A DNA stretch of 64,000 bases from a virus (IMGVR_UViG_3300005512_005684:39003-103002), one strand, 5' to 3'. Positions 5,384 to 62,452 are shown, numbered from the stretch's first letter. Program-made: numbers and translations. The notes: generated from the letters alone by a model not told the origin.

Positions 5384-5617
5384 ATGTTGAGTTGTGGTGA
5401 GCTTCAGCAATTCGAGCGGAAGATTGTCAGTAGTGCGCGGAAGAAAGACATAGAGCACCGTGCCAGGTTTGCGATAGAGAGCACGAACCCAGGGGTGAAG
5501 GCTGCTGGCGAAGCAGTGTTGTATATGCTGACGAGTGGTGTGGCCCCGAGGAAGATTATCCGCAATCAGAACTACACGGTGTGTGTGCGATACTGGGACC
5601 GTGGCCGTTGGGAATAG
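5384..5617 (+). CDS. cassette protein with degenerate leader MLSCGELQQFERK
   Basis: ELQxFE leader; ACAGGAGAAATAGT upstream. Confidence 0.55.
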   Translation: MLSCGELQQFERKIVSSARKKDIEHRARFAIESTNPGVKAAGEAVLYMLTSGVAPRKIIRNQNYTVCVRYWDRGRWE

Positions 5618-5730
5618 CCGCCCGAGAAACGGGGAATTATCGAGGTCTATTGTGAGTCGCCAAAAGCTGAAAGTGCCGTATATAGCATCCACGAGCCGCC
5701 TAGAGGCTGAATTCGATTCTCGGCAAAACG

Positions 5731-6040
5731 CCGTTTTGCCGTCACCTTTCTTCATTCACCCTCGTTATTCAAGCTAGTTAGTATGACAGGGATTATGCTT
5801 TTGGTCAATCGTGCGAGTGTGCCTGGGAATAGCGACGGCTATTGTTCGGATGTCACTCCGGCTGAAAGTGGCGTATTCGGGCGTTTCATAGCGTCTAAAT
5901 GCAGTCTAGTAAATAGGCGTGTTGTGACAGGGAGGAACACAAGGGCGTGCGGGTGTGAAGTGTCGAGCAGGTGTAGCGGGTTATGTTTATAAGCATACGG
6001 CGAAATGAGGGGGAAGAGAGGAAAGGTGACGGCAAAACGG
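5731..6040. repeat. perfect 20-bp inverted repeat enclosing 270 nt
   Basis: CCGTTTTGCCGTCACCTTTC (5731-5750) and GAAAGGTGACGGCAAAACGG (6021-6040). Confidence 0.75.
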
Positions 6041-6181
6041 CCTGCGCCGCTTTGCCGCAAACTGCCGTAGAACGCAACGAGACGCCGCCTAGATGGTATC
6101 TAGCGTTCTTGATGCCGGACGAAGACCTCGAAATTCTCCGTTTTGTTGAAACTTAATTCTTTACAGGGGAGGAAATAGATC

Positions 6182-54546: not shown

Positions 54547-54600
54547 TTACTTGTTTGTATTTCGGTAGTATTGAGAGCTACTACCGATGGAGGCCCGGAA

Positions 54601-55317
54601 ATGGAAGCCACTATTTGCCCAGACAGGGCGAATCTCGTCCTGGAAAATGTTGGCTTGGTTCACCACGTCCTTGGTAAGATGTCCACTTACCTCCCACCTA
54701 ATCTCGATTACGAGGACTTGGTTCAATCAGGATTGTCCGGTTTGATTGAAGCTGCGAATTCATTCAAGCCGGACAAAGAGATCAAGTTTTCGACCTACGC
54801 GTACATCCGTGTTCGAGGGGCGGTCATAGACATTCTACGTTCTCAGGGGTGGGGCTCCCGCGGCGGTCCAAAGAAAGTGAAGTTGGAAGATTCGTACAAC
54901 CGACATGCGGCACATCTTGGTCGTGAACCGACCATGAGTGAGTTTGCCTTGCACCTGGGTGTTACAGATGCCGAGCTTCACTCGTTACTCGGCGAGAAAT
55001 CTTTCACCGCTTGTATCTCGATTGATGTCTTGAATAAGGGAACGATTGACGTTGACCGGAGGTGCACGAGGGAAAATGTTGATGTGGTCGAACAATTGGA
55101 CTTGAAGGAACGGGAAGAGTATCTGAGAGACGCGTTCGGCAGTCTCAGCGACGAAGAACGAGCAGTCATGATTTTGTATTATGTGGACGATCTTCGACTG
55201 AAGGAAATCGCAGAGGTGTTGGAAGTTACGGAGTCGAGGGTGTCTCAGATACACCGCGAGTGTGTCTTCAAGTTGCGAGCGAGAATGAAGAAACGGTTCG
55301 GTTCTGGGTGGAACTAA
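54601..55317 (+). CDS. fliA: RNA polymerase sigma factor, FliA/WhiG (sigma-28) family
   Basis: DYEDLVQSGLSGLIEA...KFSTYAYIRVRGAVIDILR (region 2); LSDEERAVMILYYVDDLRLKEIAEVLEVTESRVSQIH (region 4). GGAGG RBS before ATG 54601. Confidence 0.88.
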   Translation: MEATICPDRANLVLENVGLVHHVLGKMSTYLPPNLDYEDLVQSGLSGLIEAANSFKPDKEIKFSTYAYIRVRGAVIDILRSQGWGSRGGPKKVKLEDSYNRHAAHLGREPTMSEFALHLGVTDAELHSLLGEKSFTACISIDVLNKGTIDVDRRCTRENVDVVEQLDLKEREEYLRDAFGSLSDEERAVMILYYVDDLRLKEIAEVLEVTESRVSQIHRECVFKLRARMKKRFGSGWN

Positions 55318-55715
55318 TGAAGAAACGGTATAGACGACTTGGACAAGAACGACCCAAAGAACGCAGTCACTACGATGTGTTGCTGGAGGATGTTCGCAGG
55401 CTTGTGTGTGCGTCTCGGCAGCAGGACATACCGATGTTGGAAATGAGAAAGGAGTTGATGGGTACGTTCTGGAAGGTGGGCAAGTGTGTTCATGAACACT
55501 CGGAGGGGGCGACTAACAAGTCGCGGTTCTTCAGAGAATCCATGCCGAGACTTGCTCAAGACTTGCTGAAAGAGTTCGGGTCTCGGTTCTTTTCGGAGTT
55601 GAACCTCCGTGCAATGCGTCAGCTTTACCTCGACCGGAAACACGATGTGTCGCCAAAGGACATACCGTTCGTCGAGCTAGTGAAGCGTCACCGAATGGAG
55701 GAAACGTTGGTTTAG
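55317..55715 (+). CDS. DUF1016 N-terminal (YhcG-N)-like protein
   Basis: YDVLLEDVRRLV...FWKVGK...RLAQDL..EFG..FSELNLRAMRQLY. Confidence 0.7.
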   Translation: MKKRYRRLGQERPKERSHYDVLLEDVRRLVCASRQQDIPMLEMRKELMGTFWKVGKCVHEHSEGATNKSRFFRESMPRLAQDLLKEFGSRFFSELNLRAMRQLYLDRKHDVSPKDIPFVELVKRHRMEETLV

Positions 55716-55746
55716 TTCATACCTCATTGGCTTGGGGGATAGTTCA

Positions 55747-56145
55747 ATGGCGTTACCAGGTTTGCAGATCAAGGATGCCTCGCGTATGACAGGGATCCCG
55801 GATCATACGATTCGGTTTTTGGAAAAGGAGTTCAAGGATTTCTTGCAGCCGAGTCGGACGAACGGGGGTCAACGTCGGTACAGCGACGAAGACATAGCCA
55901 TGCTACGTCGGATTCGGGCGTTGCTCAAGGATAAGGAGTTCACCGTCCAAGGGGCGCGGAAGTACCTGGAGAGTGAACGTGACAAAAAGGAAGTGGTGCA
56001 TCCGGCACAACTCCTGGACGATAGCGATATTGAGCAAATGCTCGATGACATGATGCCGACGATTCGGTCGAAGCTGAAGGCACGAGTGAAATCGGCCACG
56101 GAAGAACTCATGGCCGTCAACCCGGAGACTGCACCAAAGGCTTAG
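55747..56145 (+). CDS. MerR-family transcriptional regulator
   Basis: IKDASRMTGIPDHTIRFLE...PSRTNGGQRRYSDEDI...FTVQGARKYL. Confidence 0.85.
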   Translation: MALPGLQIKDASRMTGIPDHTIRFLEKEFKDFLQPSRTNGGQRRYSDEDIAMLRRIRALLKDKEFTVQGARKYLESERDKKEVVHPAQLLDDSDIEQMLDDMMPTIRSKLKARVKSATEELMAVNPETAPKA

Positions 56146-56169
56146 TTACACCTGACAGGAGAATTGTAG

Positions 56170-57435
56170 ATGGGCATATTTCTTGCTCAGTCGCTCTACC
56201 GGATTTCGGAGCGGCTCGGGGAGCTTCCCAAGGTCTTCATTGAGACGGGGACGTGGAAGGGTCAAAGTATCCGCAATGTCCAAACAACGGGTATTTTCCA
56301 GGAGCTTCACACCATAGAGCTATCTGAGACGCTCTATAAGGCCGCACAAGAGCCTCTGACGGGTTTGGGGGTGCAATGTCACCTTGGGGACTCAAAGCGT
56401 CTCCTGAAGCGTCTGGGAAGCTCCTACGACCAACCGGTGTGCTTTTACCTGGACGCACACTTTTGTAAGGAAAAGAGCGGTGAGGGAGCTATTGGATTTC
56501 CGCTTTGGTCGGAAATGGATTACGTGCGTGGTCGAGGTCTGGCGGACGTGGTGATCATTGACGACACCCATACCTTTGGCAAGCGTCGGCCTGACTTGAA
56601 GGGGAAGCTGGAAGGTGGGAGTTGGGAGTCAGTGACAAAAGCGCGCATCCTGGATTTCTTCGAGGGAAGGGTAGTCGATTCCTTCGAGATACAGGACATG
56701 TTCGTGGTGAAGCTGAAACCCGGGCCGAAACTCGTGGAAATCTTGGTGCCGTGCTACAAGCGGATCGAATACACGGAGCGGTACGTTCCCCTTTTGATCG
56801 AACGGACAGATCATCCTGGTCGGAGGATTGTCTTGGTCGATGACGGGTCGTGTGACCAGACAGGGGAAAGACTGGAAGCCATTGCTCAGAGCCACGAGGG
56901 TGTGGTCGCGCGTGTGTATCCCGAGAACAAGGGTCTGCGTTTTCGAGTCCTGGAGTTCTGGCTTCAGTCTCCGGCTTCCATTCTGGCAAAGATGGACAAC
57001 GATTGCATCGTGCCGGAAGGCTGGCTGACGAAACTTGTCGAAATCTTAGACGAGTGCCCGGAACTCGGCATTGTCTCTCCGCTCATTAACGTGGCGTCAG
57101 TTCGTGGGCAAGAGTTATACGGAGAGACGATTGTGATCGGTCGGGACGTTGGTAAGCGGTACTGGGAAGCAGAGCGGATGGGTGGCTTGTGGTGCATGAA
57201 GCGACAAGTCATTGACTCGTTTCCGCTGGAGAAAAAGTCCACGGAGGCGACCCCGTACGTCAAAGGGGCTTGGGAACTTATGTGCGAGGTCAAAGCGGCG
57301 AGTGGTATGCAGACAGGGTGGTTGCCGGAGGTGGTGGTAGAGCACGTGGGTTGTGAGACGGAGAGACACCCAGAACGTGTCAATACGCCGGAGCACGACC
57401 AGTACGTTAAAGGGCGAATCGCGACGAACAGGTAA
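56170..57435 (+). CDS. methyltransferase-like domain fused to a GT2 glycosyltransferase
   Basis: FIETGTWKG, TIEL, GDS, FYLDAH; then ILVPCYKR, VLVDDGS, KMDND. Confidence 0.8.
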   Translation: MGIFLAQSLYRISERLGELPKVFIETGTWKGQSIRNVQTTGIFQELHTIELSETLYKAAQEPLTGLGVQCHLGDSKRLLKRLGSSYDQPVCFYLDAHFCKEKSGEGAIGFPLWSEMDYVRGRGLADVVIIDDTHTFGKRRPDLKGKLEGGSWESVTKARILDFFEGRVVDSFEIQDMFVVKLKPGPKLVEILVPCYKRIEYTERYVPLLIERTDHPGRRIVLVDDGSCDQTGERLEAIAQSHEGVVARVYPENKGLRFRVLEFWLQSPASILAKMDNDCIVPEGWLTKLVEILDECPELGIVSPLINVASVRGQELYGETIVIGRDVGKRYWEAERMGGLWCMKRQVIDSFPLEKKSTEATPYVKGAWELMCEVKAASGMQTGWLPEVVVEHVGCETERHPERVNTPEHDQYVKGRIATNR

Positions 57436-57441
57436 GTGTCC

Positions 57442-58143
57442 ATGAAGGTAGAGGTTTTGGTTCCGTGTTACAAGCGTGTCGAGTACACGCGCCGGTATCT
57501 TCCGCCGCTGATTGAGAACACGCGGTACCCGGACGTTCATTTTCGTTTGGTCGATGACGGTTCGCAGGATGGTACGGCCGAGTTTCTTCAATCACTCGCC
57601 GAACAACATGACAATGTGAAAGCGGATGCTTTTCAGGTCAACTTCGGCCTGCGTTGGCGCATCCTGGAGTTCTGGGACAGTTCCGATGCTCCTATTCTGG
57701 CGAAGATGGACAACGACTGTGAAGTGCCGGAAGGCTGGCTGACGAAACTTGTCGAGACCTTGGAAGCGTGTCCAGAGCTTGGTATCGTCTCACCGGTCAT
57801 TCATACAGTGTGGATTGATGGTGATACTCTCATGGCTCCGCAGGGGAAGATCGGATTCAACCGCGGGAGGAAGTATTGGGAAGCTCTGACTATCGGCGGC
57901 TTGTGGTGCATGAAGCGGTCGGTACTCGAATCTCCGAGCGACTTTGTGAAGGGGAAGGATGATGGTATTACTGGAGCCCACGAGCTAATCAAAGCCCTTC
58001 AGTCTCAGGGGGTCGTAATGGGTTGGCTTCCCGAGGTGGTCGTTCAGCATGTGGGGTATCACAAGGGGACGCACGGGGACTACATAGATTCTCCCGAACA
58101 TCGTGAGTACAACCGAAGACGTGGCGGTAGAAAGATGAAATAG
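57442..58143 (+). CDS. GT2 glycosyltransferase (paralog of the C-terminal half of 56170)
   Basis: VLVPCYKR, LVDDGS, KMDNDCEVPEGWLTKLVE, GGLWCMKR shared with the upstream gene. Confidence 0.85.
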   Translation: MKVEVLVPCYKRVEYTRRYLPPLIENTRYPDVHFRLVDDGSQDGTAEFLQSLAEQHDNVKADAFQVNFGLRWRILEFWDSSDAPILAKMDNDCEVPEGWLTKLVETLEACPELGIVSPVIHTVWIDGDTLMAPQGKIGFNRGRKYWEALTIGGLWCMKRSVLESPSDFVKGKDDGITGAHELIKALQSQGVVMGWLPEVVVQHVGYHKGTHGDYIDSPEHREYNRRRGGRKMK

Positions 58144-58491
58144 ATGCCCACGAAGATGTCCTACAGTGAGTTGGTCGAGGCTACTTCCACGGAGGACTTG
58201 TTGTCGCTATTGATCCATAGTCAGCTTACGGAGGTTCAAGACTTCCTTCGTGACCGATTGGACAACAACATGGAAGAGTGGAGTGTTGAACGAGACGGGA
58301 GTTGCATAGTTATGGTGTCCAGCGGTGGGGAGCGAGCCAGTGTGTCTTTCGAGGCGGCGTTCTATGTATGCTGGAAGAAATACGGGACGGCGGAGACCTT
58401 GGCGACGTTCTTTGCTGGAGTGATCAAAGCGCGGGTGATCAAGTTGGTCGAGGATGGTGTGGTGTTCATGGGTGTGGTCGGTCGCTCATAG
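58144..58491 (+). CDS. hypothetical protein
   Basis: ATG immediately after the GT2 stop. Confidence 0.5.
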   Translation: MPTKMSYSELVEATSTEDLLSLLIHSQLTEVQDFLRDRLDNNMEEWSVERDGSCIVMVSSGGERASVSFEAAFYVCWKKYGTAETLATFFAGVIKARVIKLVEDGVVFMGVVGRS

Positions 58492-58563
58492 GTTATGGTG
58501 GTGTGCTTCACGATGTTGCAAGGCGACCTTCGACGTGTGTCGTTGGCCGCTTTTTCATGGGCC

Positions 58564-58716
58564 GAATTATTCGCAAATAATTCGTTTGAAAGTCGCGAAA
58601 AATCGGTTTGACACCCGAGACAGGATAGTGATACTGAGCGACCGTCGATACGGGTTATCTAGCAGGGTAGGTATCAGAGAAAACTCGTTTGACAAACGAT
58701 GGATGATTGGTAGCTT
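58564..58716 (+). promoter_or_regulatory. operator-like palindrome plus two tandem sigma70-type promoters
   Basis: GAATTATT-cgca-AATAATTC (58564-58583); TTGACA (58608)-16 nt-GATACT; TTGACA (58689)-16 nt-TAGCTT preceded by TG. Confidence 0.55.
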
Positions 58717-58934
58717 TCGAGACAGTGAGGTTGGGCTTGTAAGCGACAAGGAAGACAATACATCTGGTTTCATTTGGGTCTCCCTTTGATGATTGAAAGG
58801 AGGTGATCAACGGTCCCAAAGTCTGTACGTTGCGGCCATCGGCTGCGTTAGGTTAGGTCTGCTTTTGCTATGATGCCGGTGTTGTATCCGGTTGGCAATG
58901 TTTGTTGTGTCTTTTGCTATGGGGGATAGGTTCA

Positions 58935-59669
58935 ATGCCTACGAAGTCAAGTACGAATGGGAACGGTGACGCTCTTGCTTTGGGGAGTGCAGTTCGGTAC
59001 GAAGTGACCGGTGTCTCGAAGTCGAGGATTCTCTATCATCGGCGAATGGATCCACCTGAAGAGGTGAAATGGGCAGAGAAGTGCAAAAAGGAGGGCAAGG
59101 ATCCGAAGAAAACGGATAACGTTGCCGCCTTTGTGTACCGCTGTCCTGAGACGGGTAACATTATCATTCCGGCCAAGTGGCTCAAGGGAGCCATGTGTCA
59201 GGCGGTCAAGGGTGAAAAGGTCGAGGGGAAGGGCAACCTCGGTTGGCCAGGCAAAGTGAAGCCGGGTATTGCTGTGACTCCTGAGTGTATCGAGTACACA
59301 CCGGGTAAGAAAAGCCGTGACGGTGTGTTCGGTGAATGGGTTACGGTGAACGGGAAGCAGGTCTGGAGAGATCGTCCGTTCGTTGCACCCGGCACCGAGT
59401 TCAAGTTCGTCGTAGAGGTCACGGAGACCGAAGACATATCCGAGGAAGTCCTCATGTGGATTCTGAAGCGTGCCAGCCTTTTCGGCATTGGCGATAACCG
59501 TCCTGGCAAGAGTGGTGGGAGCTTTGGCCGGATCAGGTTCACGTCTCTTGCTCGGATCGACGAAGAGGAAGAGGACGAGCTTGTCGTGGTTGACAAACGG
59601 AAAAAGAAAAACGGCAAGCGCAAGAAAAAGCGTAACGGGAAGGTTTCCACTGGTATCGCTGTGGGGTAA
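58935..59669 (+). CDS. Cas7-like RAMP protein 1
   Basis: IIIPAKWLKGAM (RAMP P-x-x-x-L-K-G), RDRPFV..GTEFKFVVEV, terminal G-loop FGIGDNRPGKSGGSFGR, then an acidic/basic tail. Confidence 0.75.
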   Translation: MPTKSSTNGNGDALALGSAVRYEVTGVSKSRILYHRRMDPPEEVKWAEKCKKEGKDPKKTDNVAAFVYRCPETGNIIIPAKWLKGAMCQAVKGEKVEGKGNLGWPGKVKPGIAVTPECIEYTPGKKSRDGVFGEWVTVNGKQVWRDRPFVAPGTEFKFVVEVTETEDISEEVLMWILKRASLFGIGDNRPGKSGGSFGRIRFTSLARIDEEEEDELVVVDKRKKKNGKRKKKRNGKVSTGIAVG

Positions 59670-59672
59670 ATC

Positions 59673-60227
59673 ATGGAACGCGACAATTACCTAAAGGCGA
59701 TTCTCGCGAGCACGAAACCCGTGTTCATGTCGCCCCGGACAGAGTTGTTGCCCCCTGACAGTAGTTCTGAAACGCTACGAAACGCTGCGAACGTAAGGCG
59801 CGTGGATGGTCAGGGGCGTCTGGGTCTTCCTGCGACTTGGCTGAAAAGGAGCTTGCGAGAGGCTTCCTCGAAGGTCAAGTTGTCTGGGACTCGGACGTGT
59901 CGATCCGCAGTTGATACAGGGGTGTTCGTCTTTCCAGACGAAGTGATCCCGTTCACCACGCACGAAGAGGAAACGTGTCTGCGTACGATGCGTATGCAAG
60001 GTATTGTGACCACGTGCGAGCGGTTGAAGGTGAAGTGGTGGGAACTTCCTCTCGTTTTGATGTATTCGCCGTCTATGATTACCCGAGAACAGTTGGAGGA
60101 AGTTCTCCGGGTGGCCGGTGAAGAAATCGGTGTCGGTACATACCGACCGCAGTTCGGTACGTTTGCGGTCAAAAAGTGCTTGAGAGTGAAGCAGAGTACT
60201 GCGGAGTCTCTCTTGGACGCCTATTGA
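59673..60227 (+). CDS. Cas7-like RAMP protein 2
   Basis: LGLPATWLKRSLREA, RLKVKWWELPLVLMY, G-loop AGEEIGVGTYRPQFGTF. Confidence 0.75.
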   Translation: MERDNYLKAILASTKPVFMSPRTELLPPDSSSETLRNAANVRRVDGQGRLGLPATWLKRSLREASSKVKLSGTRTCRSAVDTGVFVFPDEVIPFTTHEEETCLRTMRMQGIVTTCERLKVKWWELPLVLMYSPSMITREQLEEVLRVAGEEIGVGTYRPQFGTFAVKKCLRVKQSTAESLLDAY

Positions 60228-60480
60228 ATATCGTTGATTTTCGGTAGGTCAGGGTGTGTTTAGTTTCGGTATGTTGGTTTTCAGTTACGTTACGCTCCGT
60301 CATTTTACAATACCACTGCGTGTTGTCCCTGCTCCCTGGCGTTTGGGCCTTTTTTCGGTTCGATTCCGAATGGGAGCTTAGTGTTATGTTCCGTTTTGTC
60401 GTGGTTCGCTATGTTGGCTTGGGTTAAGGTTTAGTGTGTTCGGCTTTGTCGATTTACAACACCTTTGAGTGTTGTCCCCT

Positions 60481-60528
60481 ACTCCTGAGAGGTCTGGTCT
60501 TTCATTCGGTTCGACCCCGGACAGGAGT
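60481..60528 (+). ncRNA. representative tRNA-like element (acceptor stem, mini D-arm, T-arm; no anticodon arm)
   Basis: ACTCCTG-AGA GGTCTGG TCT-ttca-TTCGG TTCGACC CCGGA-CAGGAGT. Other copies start at 60331, 60721, 60857, 61005, 61432, 61582, 61729 and 61874. Confidence 0.7.
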
Positions 60529-61166
60529 GCTATCTGGTAAGGTCCGTTAAGTTTCGTTAAGGTATGATCAGTCATGTTGGGTTTTGACACTTTACAATAC
60601 CACTGCGTGTTGTCCCCTACTCCTGAGAGTATGGTGCGTTGGTGTAAGGTAAGGCGGGGTTGGTTGGGTTAAGTTAGCTTCAGGTGTGTCCTTTTACAAC
60701 ACCACTGCGTGTTGTCCCCTACTCCTGAGCGACGGGCTTTACTTGGTTCGACTCCGAGTGGGAGTGTGGTTTCGTTGCGTTTCGTTAAGTTATTCTACGT
60801 TATGTTGTGGTCCGTTCAGTTTCGTTCTCTTACAACACCACTGCGTGTTGTCCCCTACTCCTGAGAGGTCTGGTCTTTCGATCTGGTTCGATCCCGGACA
60901 GGAGTGTTAAGGTTAAGTTAGGTTCGGTCTAGTTCTAGTATGCTACGTTCTGTTTTGTTCTGTCAGGGTTCGTCTCTTTACAACACCACTGCGTGTTGTC
61001 CCCTACTCTTGAGCGACGGGTTTTCATTCGGTTCGATCCCGGACAGGGGTGTTGTCCGGTTGCGGTTAGTTTCGTTTAGGTGGGTTTTGTTGGTCTTTGT
61101 TCGGTTCCGTCACTTTACAACACCGTTGCGTGTTGTCCTTATTCCTGTGTTTTGATCGGAGTGAAA

Positions 61167-61424
61167 ATGGAGTCGATAGGAAGCGAACCGTTGTTTCAGA
61201 GGGCGAGAGCTAGAGCGTCTGAAGTGTTAAGTGTGGAGAGTGGGTTGGTAGTCTTGAGATTGAGAGTGTCGAGGATGGAAGGTAGTGGGAGGATTGATCA
61301 TTCTAGTTCGTTGAGACTGCAAGGGTGGCTTGTCGGTCTTATGGATTTGTTGAAGGAAGAAAAGCAGGCAAGTGTTGGTGCTATGCGACGTATAAAAAGT
61401 GTTGTCAGTGAGTTTGTTTGTTGA
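61167..61424 (+). CDS. small helical protein inside the array
   Basis: GGAG RBS; the only non-repetitive segment inside the array; 85 aa. Confidence 0.55.
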   Translation: MESIGSEPLFQRARARASEVLSVESGLVVLRLRVSRMEGSGRIDHSSSLRLQGWLVGLMDLLKEEKQASVGAMRRIKSVVSEFVC

Positions 61425-62000
61425 TTGTGTTACTCCTGAGAGGTCTGGTCTTTCGATCTGGTTCGATCCCGGACAGGAGTGTTGTCTGCCATGTTCCGTT
61501 AAGTTCCGTTCCGTTGCGTTGATGTGAGGTTTGTTGAGGTTCGTTCTGTCAATCTACAACACCTTTGAGTGTTGTCCCCTTACTCCTGAGCGACGGGTTT
61601 TTCTCGGTTCGACTCCGAGCGGGAGCTTAGAATTATGTTGGTGTCGGTTACGCTCTGTTCTGTTAGGTTCAGTTCAGTTACGTTCCGTTCGGTTGGGTCA
61701 ATCTACAACACCCTTGCGTGTTGTCCCTACTCTTGAGTGACGGGCTTTACCTGGTTCGACTCCGGGTGAGAGTGCTAGTGTTACGTTATGTTCCGTTTAG
61801 TTAGTTTCCGTTGAGCTTTTGGTTTGGTGCGTTGAGTTCGGTCGATTTACAACACCGTTGCGTGTTGTCCCTTACTCCTGAGAGGTCTGGTCTTTCATTC
61901 GGTTCGACCCCGGACAGGAGTTGAGTGTTGAGGTTAGTTATGTTCCGTTACGTTCCGTTCCGTCTCCGTTACGTTACGGTATGGTTCGTTACGTCAATCT

Positions 62001-62028
62001 ACAACACCGCTGCGTGTTGTCCCTTTTT
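62001..62028 (+). terminator. last array hairpin followed by CCCTTTTT (possible weak intrinsic terminator)
   Basis: 7-bp stem with a T5 run 3 nt downstream; no other hairpin copy has this run. Confidence 0.3.
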
Positions 62029-62041
62029 GGAGGTTTGTCGG

Positions 62042-62452
62042 ATGGAAGAAAGAAATCAGGATGTAGTCACTGCGGAAGCGAAGGCGATCAAAGCCTACGT
62101 CGATAAGACTTGGGGAAGGCATGTTAATACGGAACTCGAAGTACCGTTGCGAGACCTTTTCCCTAAGCCGGAAAAGAAACACCTGCATAGTATGTGGGAG
62201 AAAGGTGCAGCGGACGTAGTGGTAAGACGGAGGGACGGCAGCGTGTTGACAATCATTGAGCCAGGTGGTGGCCAGCATCTACGGCGAGAGCAGAACACGA
62301 GGGACAAAAAAAAGTTCGCCATTTGCTCTCAGAATGGCGTAGGGTGTCTTCAGATGTTGAACGGCGTCATGACTTCGTTACCGAAACGTCAGTGGCGGCG
62401 ATTCCTTGGAAGCTATATCTGGGGGAATGTCAAGGCGTCTGAGACCAACTGA
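62042..62452 (+). CDS. PD-(D/E)xK restriction-endonuclease-fold protein (DUF2726/Vsr-like)
   Basis: AADVVV...LTIIEPGGGQH...RDKKKFAICSQNGV; GGAGG RBS before ATG 62042. Confidence 0.6.
   Translation: MEERNQDVVTAEAKAIKAYVDKTWGRHVNTELEVPLRDLFPKPEKKHLHSMWEKGAADVVVRRRDGSVLTIIEPGGGQHLRREQNTRDKKKFAICSQNGVGCLQMLNGVMTSLPKRQWRRFLGSYIWGNVKASETN

Follow-up and report, generated by a model that had tools for sequence, protein, structure and literature searches.

VIPR is a CRISPR-like phage system that was first described in 2026 (10.64898/2026.04.26.720920, 10.64898/2026.04.26.720927). In the vrRNAs that Vipr binds, GGY alternates with NN up to a structured tail, and the NN positions specify a double-stranded DNA target in which one base is skipped per unit; the evidence includes sRNA-seq, pull-down, binding assays, GFP silencing and phage defence (10.64898/2026.04.26.720920). 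Cryo-EM revealed one protomer per repeat, with the GGY displaced, N4N5 paired and every third target base skipped (10.64898/2026.04.26.720927). Vipr is a small RAMP with a single RRM, a G-loop and a thumb, and such systems include an accessory vap gene whose product acts on DNA. The published threshold for a target is an 80% NN match, and self-targets are absent in other VIPRs. Non-canonical units named in the text of the preprints include GAC/NN, CAC/NN, WGT/NN and TGH/NN (10.64898/2026.10.21.760802) as well as NNNGG, YNNNG and NNNNG (10.64898/2026.04.26.720920).

The locus described here lies in a window of 64,000 nt (the whole stretch of DNA that was analyzed) from an uncultured phage of jumbo size; the virus record measures 331,348 bp and all its genes lie on the same strand as the array. 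The locus holds a Vipr-clade RAMP in two copies, tracts of 5-nt units, a structured 3′ tail and no self-target, and we consider it very probable that the array is a vrRNA guide array of a VIPR system in this 331-kb phage. That a Cas7-like filament can read a gapped RNA code has already been published, so the present finding is a rediscovery in an unusual variant. Unusual are the GUY triplet, the two tandem Vipr paralogues, the nine tRNA-like modules and a conserved neighbor gene with a predicted nuclease fold.

The locus resembles the type II VIPR of Escherichia phage SUSP1 in its small Cas7-like Vipr belonging to phrog_4652, in its guides of 9–16 units, each a triplet plus hypervariable NN, with an invariant structured 3′ tail, and in that it carries several guides and a candidate accessory gene and lacks self-targets. 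It differs in that the triplet is G-K-Y instead of GGY, the tail is read as a simple 7-bp hairpin instead of a pseudoknot, and vipr is present as two paralogues, against one in SUSP1. Moreover, 11 guides are united here in one array with tRNA-like modules between them, the candidate accessory gene has a predicted nuclease fold whereas Vap1 of SUSP1 is DNA-binding, and the phage is a 331-kb jumbo phage. The Cas7 backbones of Class 1 CRISPR effectors (Csm3, Cmr4, type VII Cas7) are also alike in their RAMP fold with G-rich loop and thumb, and in forming a protein filament on the guide with periodic base displacement. There the period is 6 nt with one base displaced, whereas it would be 5 nt with three displaced here, with fixed bases inside the guide and no repeat-spacer array. 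A scan of neighboring genes found no cas genes.

Five-base register of the guide array

The array fills the interval from the stop codon of the upstream gene (60227) to the start of the next gene (62042). Its 11 pentamer tracts span 60233–62000, are G/U-rich and measure 58–74 nt in each unit. Every tract is followed by an invariant hairpin with a C-rich run, and in nine cases by a 45–49-nt element containing GGTTCGAYYCC. The direct repeats of 25–40 nt and contiguous spacers by which CRISPR-Cas is recognized are not found; each unit of the array is made up of tract, hairpin and tRNA-like module, and its variable part carries fixed bases every 5 nt. The T excess across the region is strong (AT skew −0.36).

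A dynamic-programming parse of the 11 tracts yields 153 five-base units, 12–15 per tract, with only 4 one-base insertions. Starts of G[TG][TC] in the modal phase total 107, versus 36.4 ± 3.1 (maximum 49) for 2000 shuffles, and the lag-5 identity is 0.498 versus 0.312 ± 0.016 in shuffles. The parse, the phase coherence and the lag-5 identity bear out the strict 5-nt register that the initial annotation had proposed. When the 331,348-bp genome was scanned, lag-5 identities of at least 0.62 were confined to scanning windows inside the array, and runs of AGY, GGY, GAY or WGT pentamers were found nowhere outside it on either strand of the whole genome. A run of G[TG][TC] at 58446–58495 was rejected as a further tract and is attributed to chance, since it lies at the end of a coding frame and lacks the tail hairpin.

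The first triplet position is G in 130 of the 153 units (85%), the second is T in 111 (73%) or G in 31 (20%), and the third is a pyrimidine throughout (T 134, C 19). GTT is the commonest triplet (81 units, 53%), followed by GGT (23, 15%) and GTC (16, 10%), and 4/153 units start with A. The triplet had been described as near-constant and mostly GTT; a fixed triplet is indeed real, but it is not strictly GTT and is better written as G-K-Y with GUU dominant. Because only 24/153 units are canonical GGY, it counts as a ‘related consensus’ to GGY. The tract cited as an example at 61632–61701, with 10 of 14 units beginning with GTT, proved exact. Nine of the 11 tracts have GTC as their last full unit; TTT or TCT comes next, and then the hairpin. 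This order anchors the register to the hairpin, as had been claimed together with the GTC ending.

Both variable positions are near-uniform in composition (first N: A 48, C 36, G 29, T 28; second N: C 44, T 38, A 34, G 25), and the NN series is non-repetitive and different in each of the eleven tracts, which upholds the earlier view that the array is not a simple microsatellite. The period-5 and period-10 arrays reported here by TRF would suit a feature acting at the DNA level, such as a microsatellite, iterons, a centromere-like site or curved DNA. In view of the non-repetitive NN series such an explanation is exceedingly improbable; moreover, all tracts are on a single strand, unrelated phages likewise have such tracts together with RAMP genes, and the hairpin and the covarying tRNA-like fold with which every tract is associated are sensible only as RNA.

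All 11 vrRNAs lie on the + strand and comprise a tract plus a tail hairpin. Fifteen units are present in vrRNA 1 (60233–60326), vrRNA 2 (60383–60475) and vrRNA 6 (60906–60999), and 14 in vrRNA 4 (60628–60715), vrRNA 8 (61483–61575), vrRNA 9 (61632–61724, which contains the example tract), vrRNA 10 (61780–61868) and vrRNA 11 (61927–62020). The shorter ones are vrRNA 5 (60769–60851) and vrRNA 7 (61054–61136), both with 13 units, and vrRNA 3 (60536–60613) with 12. The tail hairpin, ACAAYACC-N5-GYGTTGT with a 7-bp stem, is followed by a CCC-rich run and occurs after 11 of 11 tracts and nowhere else in the genome. T-rich runs follow the two tail hairpins that precede ORFs, those of vrRNA 7 and vrRNA 11. 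The first of these ORFs encodes 85 aa, has a GGAG ribosome-binding site and lies within the array, flanked by guide 7 and tRNA-like module 6 (61167–61424, + strand); its product has no Pfam or family match.

Comparison with known RNAs gave no Rfam match even at E values up to 10. The hairpin pattern had only six single matches in IMG/VR, which is chance level, the 21-mer of the tail was absent from JGI metagenomes, and no relatives of the locus were found at the DNA level in the phage collection.

tRNA-like modules and proposed release of the guides

Each of the nine separators folds into three stems: an acceptor stem of 7 bp, a D-like stem of 3 bp, and a T stem of 5 bp whose loop reads TTCGAYY. 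In this fold 97.8% of the cells are paired, versus at most 54% in slid controls, and compensatory changes are found at six pairs. On the basis of fold and covariation the modules were placed, all on the + strand, at 60331–60377, 60481–60528, 60721–60765, 60857–60905 and 61005–61050 (modules 1–5) and at 61432–61480, 61582–61626, 61729–61773 and 61874–61921 (modules 6–9). They are not true tRNAs: they comprise only the acceptor, the mini D-like stem and the T arm, a complete cloverleaf with an anticodon arm is absent, and both ARAGORN, which found no tRNA genes in the window, and Rfam were negative. Elsewhere in the genome, C1:234359–239053 carries nine tRNA genes (Leu, Met, Asn, Gly, Phe, two Val, Ile and Trp).

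No tRNA-like module follows vrRNA 3. At the junction of guides 3 and 4 (60614–60627) only the 5′ acceptor strand of a module (ACTCCTGAG) is left, which looks like a deletion remnant, judging from the sequence. Guides 3 and 4 may stay joined or undergo other processing.

tRNA-shaped modules let host enzymes release small RNAs in engineered polycistronic tRNA-gRNA arrays and in the tRNA-miRNA transcripts of murid herpesvirus 68. The arrangement in this locus differs from these in being a natural phage arrangement with a module that lacks the anticodon arm and with predicted processing. Among VIPR systems, the type I and type V arrays interspersed with hammerhead ribozymes are similar in having structured RNA between the guides, which presumably releases the vrRNAs. 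The hammerheads are self-cleaving, whereas the acceptor/T-arm modules found here would borrow RNase P and RNase Z. The word ‘tRNA’ is absent from the text of three VIPR preprints.

Two TTGACA-N17-like motifs (TTGACAcccgag...GATACT and TTGACAaacgat...TAGCTT) are located at 58560–58720, within the 440-nt gap 5′ of the first vipr gene, and by sequence they are candidate promoters for a vipr-array transcript. No sigma-70-like promoter was found on the + strand inside the array. The array would probably be transcribed together with the two vipr genes, and the transcript could then be cut into 11 RNAs of roughly 80–100 nt. Most likely the nine tRNA-like modules would serve this step by recruiting host RNase P and the enzymes of 3′-end tRNA processing.

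The region just upstream (54571–58143) encodes a sigma-70-family factor, a DUF1016_N/PDC-S02-like protein, a MerR-family regulator and two family-2 glycosyltransferases. The GC skew is uniformly positive over the whole 331-kb genome, and a host-like flank is absent although the record is labeled ‘provirus’.

Vipr-family proteins and the fixed triplet

Two genes on the + strand precede the array, encoding proteins of 244 aa (P0001, vipr paralogue 1, 58935–59669) and 184 aa (P0002, vipr paralogue 2, 59673–60227). Neither has a match in Pfam or PADLOC. An exhaustive profile search with the 184-aa protein retrieved 156 homologues, and all of the 62 that were tested fall in phrog_4652, a family of unknown function. 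Its AF2 model (pLDDT 89.5) matches the folds of Csm3, Cmr4 and type VII Cas7 with Foldseek E values of about 1e-6 and Z scores of about 11. For the 244-aa protein no relatives were obtained by word search or in viral contigs. Its alignment to the Vipr family reaches an hhalign probability of 99.3% (E 4e-20), the HMM match to the family has an E value of 3e-20, and the best folds for its AF2 model (pLDDT 83) are Csm3 and type VII Cas7. It possesses an insertion in the G-loop and a C-terminal tail that is first acidic and then basic. As judged by profile and predicted fold, the 244-aa protein belongs, as a diverged representative, to the family of the 184-aa protein, and both are Cas7-like RAMPs of the Vipr family. 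The other family loci examined have one vipr gene each, against two here.

The connection of this family to VIPR follows from the Felix-O1-like coliphages, in which family members were found by tblastn. In Escherichia phage VpaE1 (KM657822) the family gene is flanked by five GGTNN pentamer tracts. The region L017:5100–6880 of this phage is a canonical type II VIPR locus, with the Vipr orthologue at 5572–6159, the five GGTNN guides around it and a ATCACTTAA...TTAAGTGAT hairpin before each; its parts are annotated as hypothetical only or are unannotated. The VpaE1 protein has exactly the residues identified in the SUSP1 cryo-EM work (H17, K33, R39, K82, R138, D177 and W178). Together with the GGTNN flanks, these residues tie the family directly to the published VIPR system.

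The initial annotation had suggested that each RAMP subunit holds the triplet and presents NN to a gapped target. This discontinuous guide code is in essence the mechanism published for VIPR, and as both upstream proteins are of the Vipr family, the suggestion is supported by homology to VIPR. TRAP, the attenuation protein, binds (G/U)AG-NN repeats, and a triplet with a 2-nt spacer repeated 11–15 times has the geometry of a TRAP site, which would be in agreement with an RNA that is a protein-binding platform (a sponge or scaffold) in which NN are mere spacers. Such a TRAP-like platform was dropped once the proteins proved to be Vipr-family RAMPs, a family in which NN is shown to specify targets. 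Eleven differing NN series would be pointless for a sponge, and the series of guide 4 spells a real protein motif, which leaves this option highly improbable.

When the sites are numbered according to SUSP1, the 244-aa protein keeps the equivalents of H17, R138 and D177 and has two helices at the position of the alpha-bundle. In the 184-aa protein, S and T occupy positions 17 and 177, and at the alpha-bundle the model shows just a single short helix of low confidence. Position 177 was compared with the first triplet base in a small sample of five related loci (VpaE1, L020, L024, L027 and L028). D177 occurs with GGT tracts in VpaE1 and L020, T177 with AGY tracts in L027 (1843–2330) and L028 (890–1000), and S177 with WGT tracts in L024 (2087–2411), each array lying beside the respective Vipr relative. 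In these sequences, few as they are, the residue at 177 suggests a rule by which it tracks the first triplet base (D with G, T with A, S with W), and this fits the published D177–G1 contact. The genes neighboring L024, L027 and L028 include DUF559, ERCC4 and metallophosphoesterase-like genes.

Under this small-sample rule the 244-aa protein would fit the G-first units of the array. The 184-aa protein misfits the tract, since T177 goes with A-first units, of which there are so few here, and since the genome holds no A-first array. Relatives that read G-first units have H or N and D at the positions where the 184-aa protein has S and T. The 184-aa protein may instead cap the terminal GUC unit or the hairpin. 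A further candidate explanation, that an Asn at the position of W178 causes the U at the second triplet base, was rejected: P0014, a related protein, shares this Asn although G2 is retained in its WGT units. In the non-canonical arrays of other VIPRs the 5-nt period, a fixed triplet other than GGY and an adjoining Vipr-fold gene are found as well. In those described in the text of the preprints it is mostly G1 that degenerates, whereas here G1 is kept and G2 is replaced, and a triplet with G first and U second is not among the motifs named in that text.

The gene following the array (62042–62452, + strand) encodes a 136-aa protein and is likely, on sequence grounds, an accessory gene (candidate vap) with a predicted nuclease-like fold of the DUF2726/PD-(D/E)xK type. 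The protein is 42% identical (E 4e-38) to the product of the gene that follows vipr and the vrRNA in L020. Its match to DUF2726 is weak (19.5 bits versus a cutoff of 24.7), its atlas neighbors are DUF2726 clusters, and DUF559/MTES_1575 genes are present in related vipr loci. L020 itself has one Vipr, a single canonical GGT/NN guide ending in a GC-rich hairpin, and the homologue of the 136-aa neighbor; the locus (L020:3414–4413) is on a contig of a related large phage that also carries NADAR-like and GT2 genes.

Target searches and possible mechanism

A mechanism modeled on type II VIPR can be considered for this locus. Starting from the hairpin tail at the 3′ end, Vipr would polymerize along the tract with one protomer on each 5-nt unit, keeping the fixed G-K-Y triplet out of reach and leaving the two variable bases exposed. 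As in the homologous type II system, the 24–28 presented bases could pair with double-stranded DNA such that every third target base is skipped, and because of this skipping the guide would read codon positions 1 and 2 without regard to the wobble position. The target would then be silenced, or cleaved should the predicted nuclease-fold neighbor (62042–62452) be active. The 1-nt skip rule is an extrapolation here, as the triplet is GUY and the characterized systems have GGY; both this rule and the targets of the GUY variant are inferred by analogy.

Within the phage's own genome no self-target at skip 0, 1 or 2 reaches 80% NN, and the best self match, 19/28 at skip 1, is level with shuffled controls. 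Self matches at skip 3 were rejected as targets, being the guides themselves, and guide 7 was rejected as a match to the G-loop motif of Vipr, as the spacing misfits. The initial annotation had proposed searching phage and host genomes with gapped patterns of the NN series. Exact NNx scans of IMG/VR with six guides gave no match (guide 9 with 11 units; guides 8, 2, 5, 7 and 4 with 10 units each). One near-match of guide 4 was found in a bacterial genome. The exact 12-unit pattern of guide 4 had no match in GTDB representatives and JGI metagenomes. These exact scans are weak as negatives because no mismatch was allowed.

When guide 4 is read as codons, with NN as the first two bases and a free third base, it gives [IM]AG[KN][KN]G[CW]GK[RS][HQ]VL, which is a GxxGxGKS Walker-A box. 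A strict Walker A appeared in 10/20000 permutations of the NN pool of guide 4, a figure that is indicative only because the motif was noticed after decoding. The 3′ ten units of guide 4 have a single match among GTDB representatives, in Prevotella sp. DNF00663. The match extends to 11 units with 23/26 NN bases (88%), is in frame with the skipped bases at wobble positions, and covers LIGKNGCGKSHVL, the Walker-A codons of a 593-aa protein. A single match is about what is expected by chance for 20 fixed bases. With up to 3 mismatches allowed, guide 4 found no match beyond that one genome among 401 genomes of the Prevotella phylum, and the other guides were all at chance level on the Prevotella locus.

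The 593-aa protein contains AAA_15, AAA_21 and SMC_N domains and matches PtuA, AriA/AriAB, GajA and Old in PADLOC, and the motif G[KN]NGCGKS is kept in twenty of its homologues. Its gene, an ABC-ATPase/TOPRIM gene (OLD/Septu/PARIS-like), is directly downstream of hsdS and embedded in a type I restriction-modification locus (region L022:3795–7983). The match of guide 4 points towards silencing of a defence gene, as a lead and not as proof.

A VIPR-like ribonucleoprotein could also obey another rule or serve another purpose, with a different skip length, with RNA targets, or in regulating transcripts of the phage or its host while having no foreign targets recognized by sequence. The triplet is unlike the characterized GGY, the base-contact residues of the two paralogues are divergent, and six guides lack an exact NNx match in IMG/VR, all of which would be compatible with such a departure. 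The exact scans are of limited weight for the reason given above, the phage genome offers no match at skip 0, 1 or 2, and the 11 consecutive in-frame codon matches of guide 4 appear only under a 1-nt skip reading. We therefore consider a different rule or purpose improbable.

The observations on guide 4 and on the two paralogues can be combined with the VIPR mechanism into a more specific but rather unlikely scenario, namely that of a jumbo-phage VIPR subtype in which two specialized paralogues use GUY guides, released from a tRNA-guide polycistron via RNase P and RNase Z, for counter-defence. One paralogue would be the reader of the G-first tract, and the second would cap the terminal GUC unit or the hairpin. 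The guides would spell conserved motifs of host immunity proteins, such as the Walker A of OLD/Septu/PARIS-type ABC ATPases, and through a code that skips the wobble base, many alleles would be within reach of a single guide.

The locus adds to the natural variation of VIPR in that the second G of the fixed triplet is replaced by U, and it holds a natural tRNA-punctuated guide array. The relation between residue 177 and the first triplet base, derived from a small sample, could guide the engineering of orthogonal Vipr/vrRNA pairs. The locus is possibly the first in which two Vipr subunits co-operate, a point of relevance to the origins of multi-RAMP CRISPR effectors. If the guide 4 lead is true, phages would silence host defence genes through VIPR by reading conserved protein motifs.
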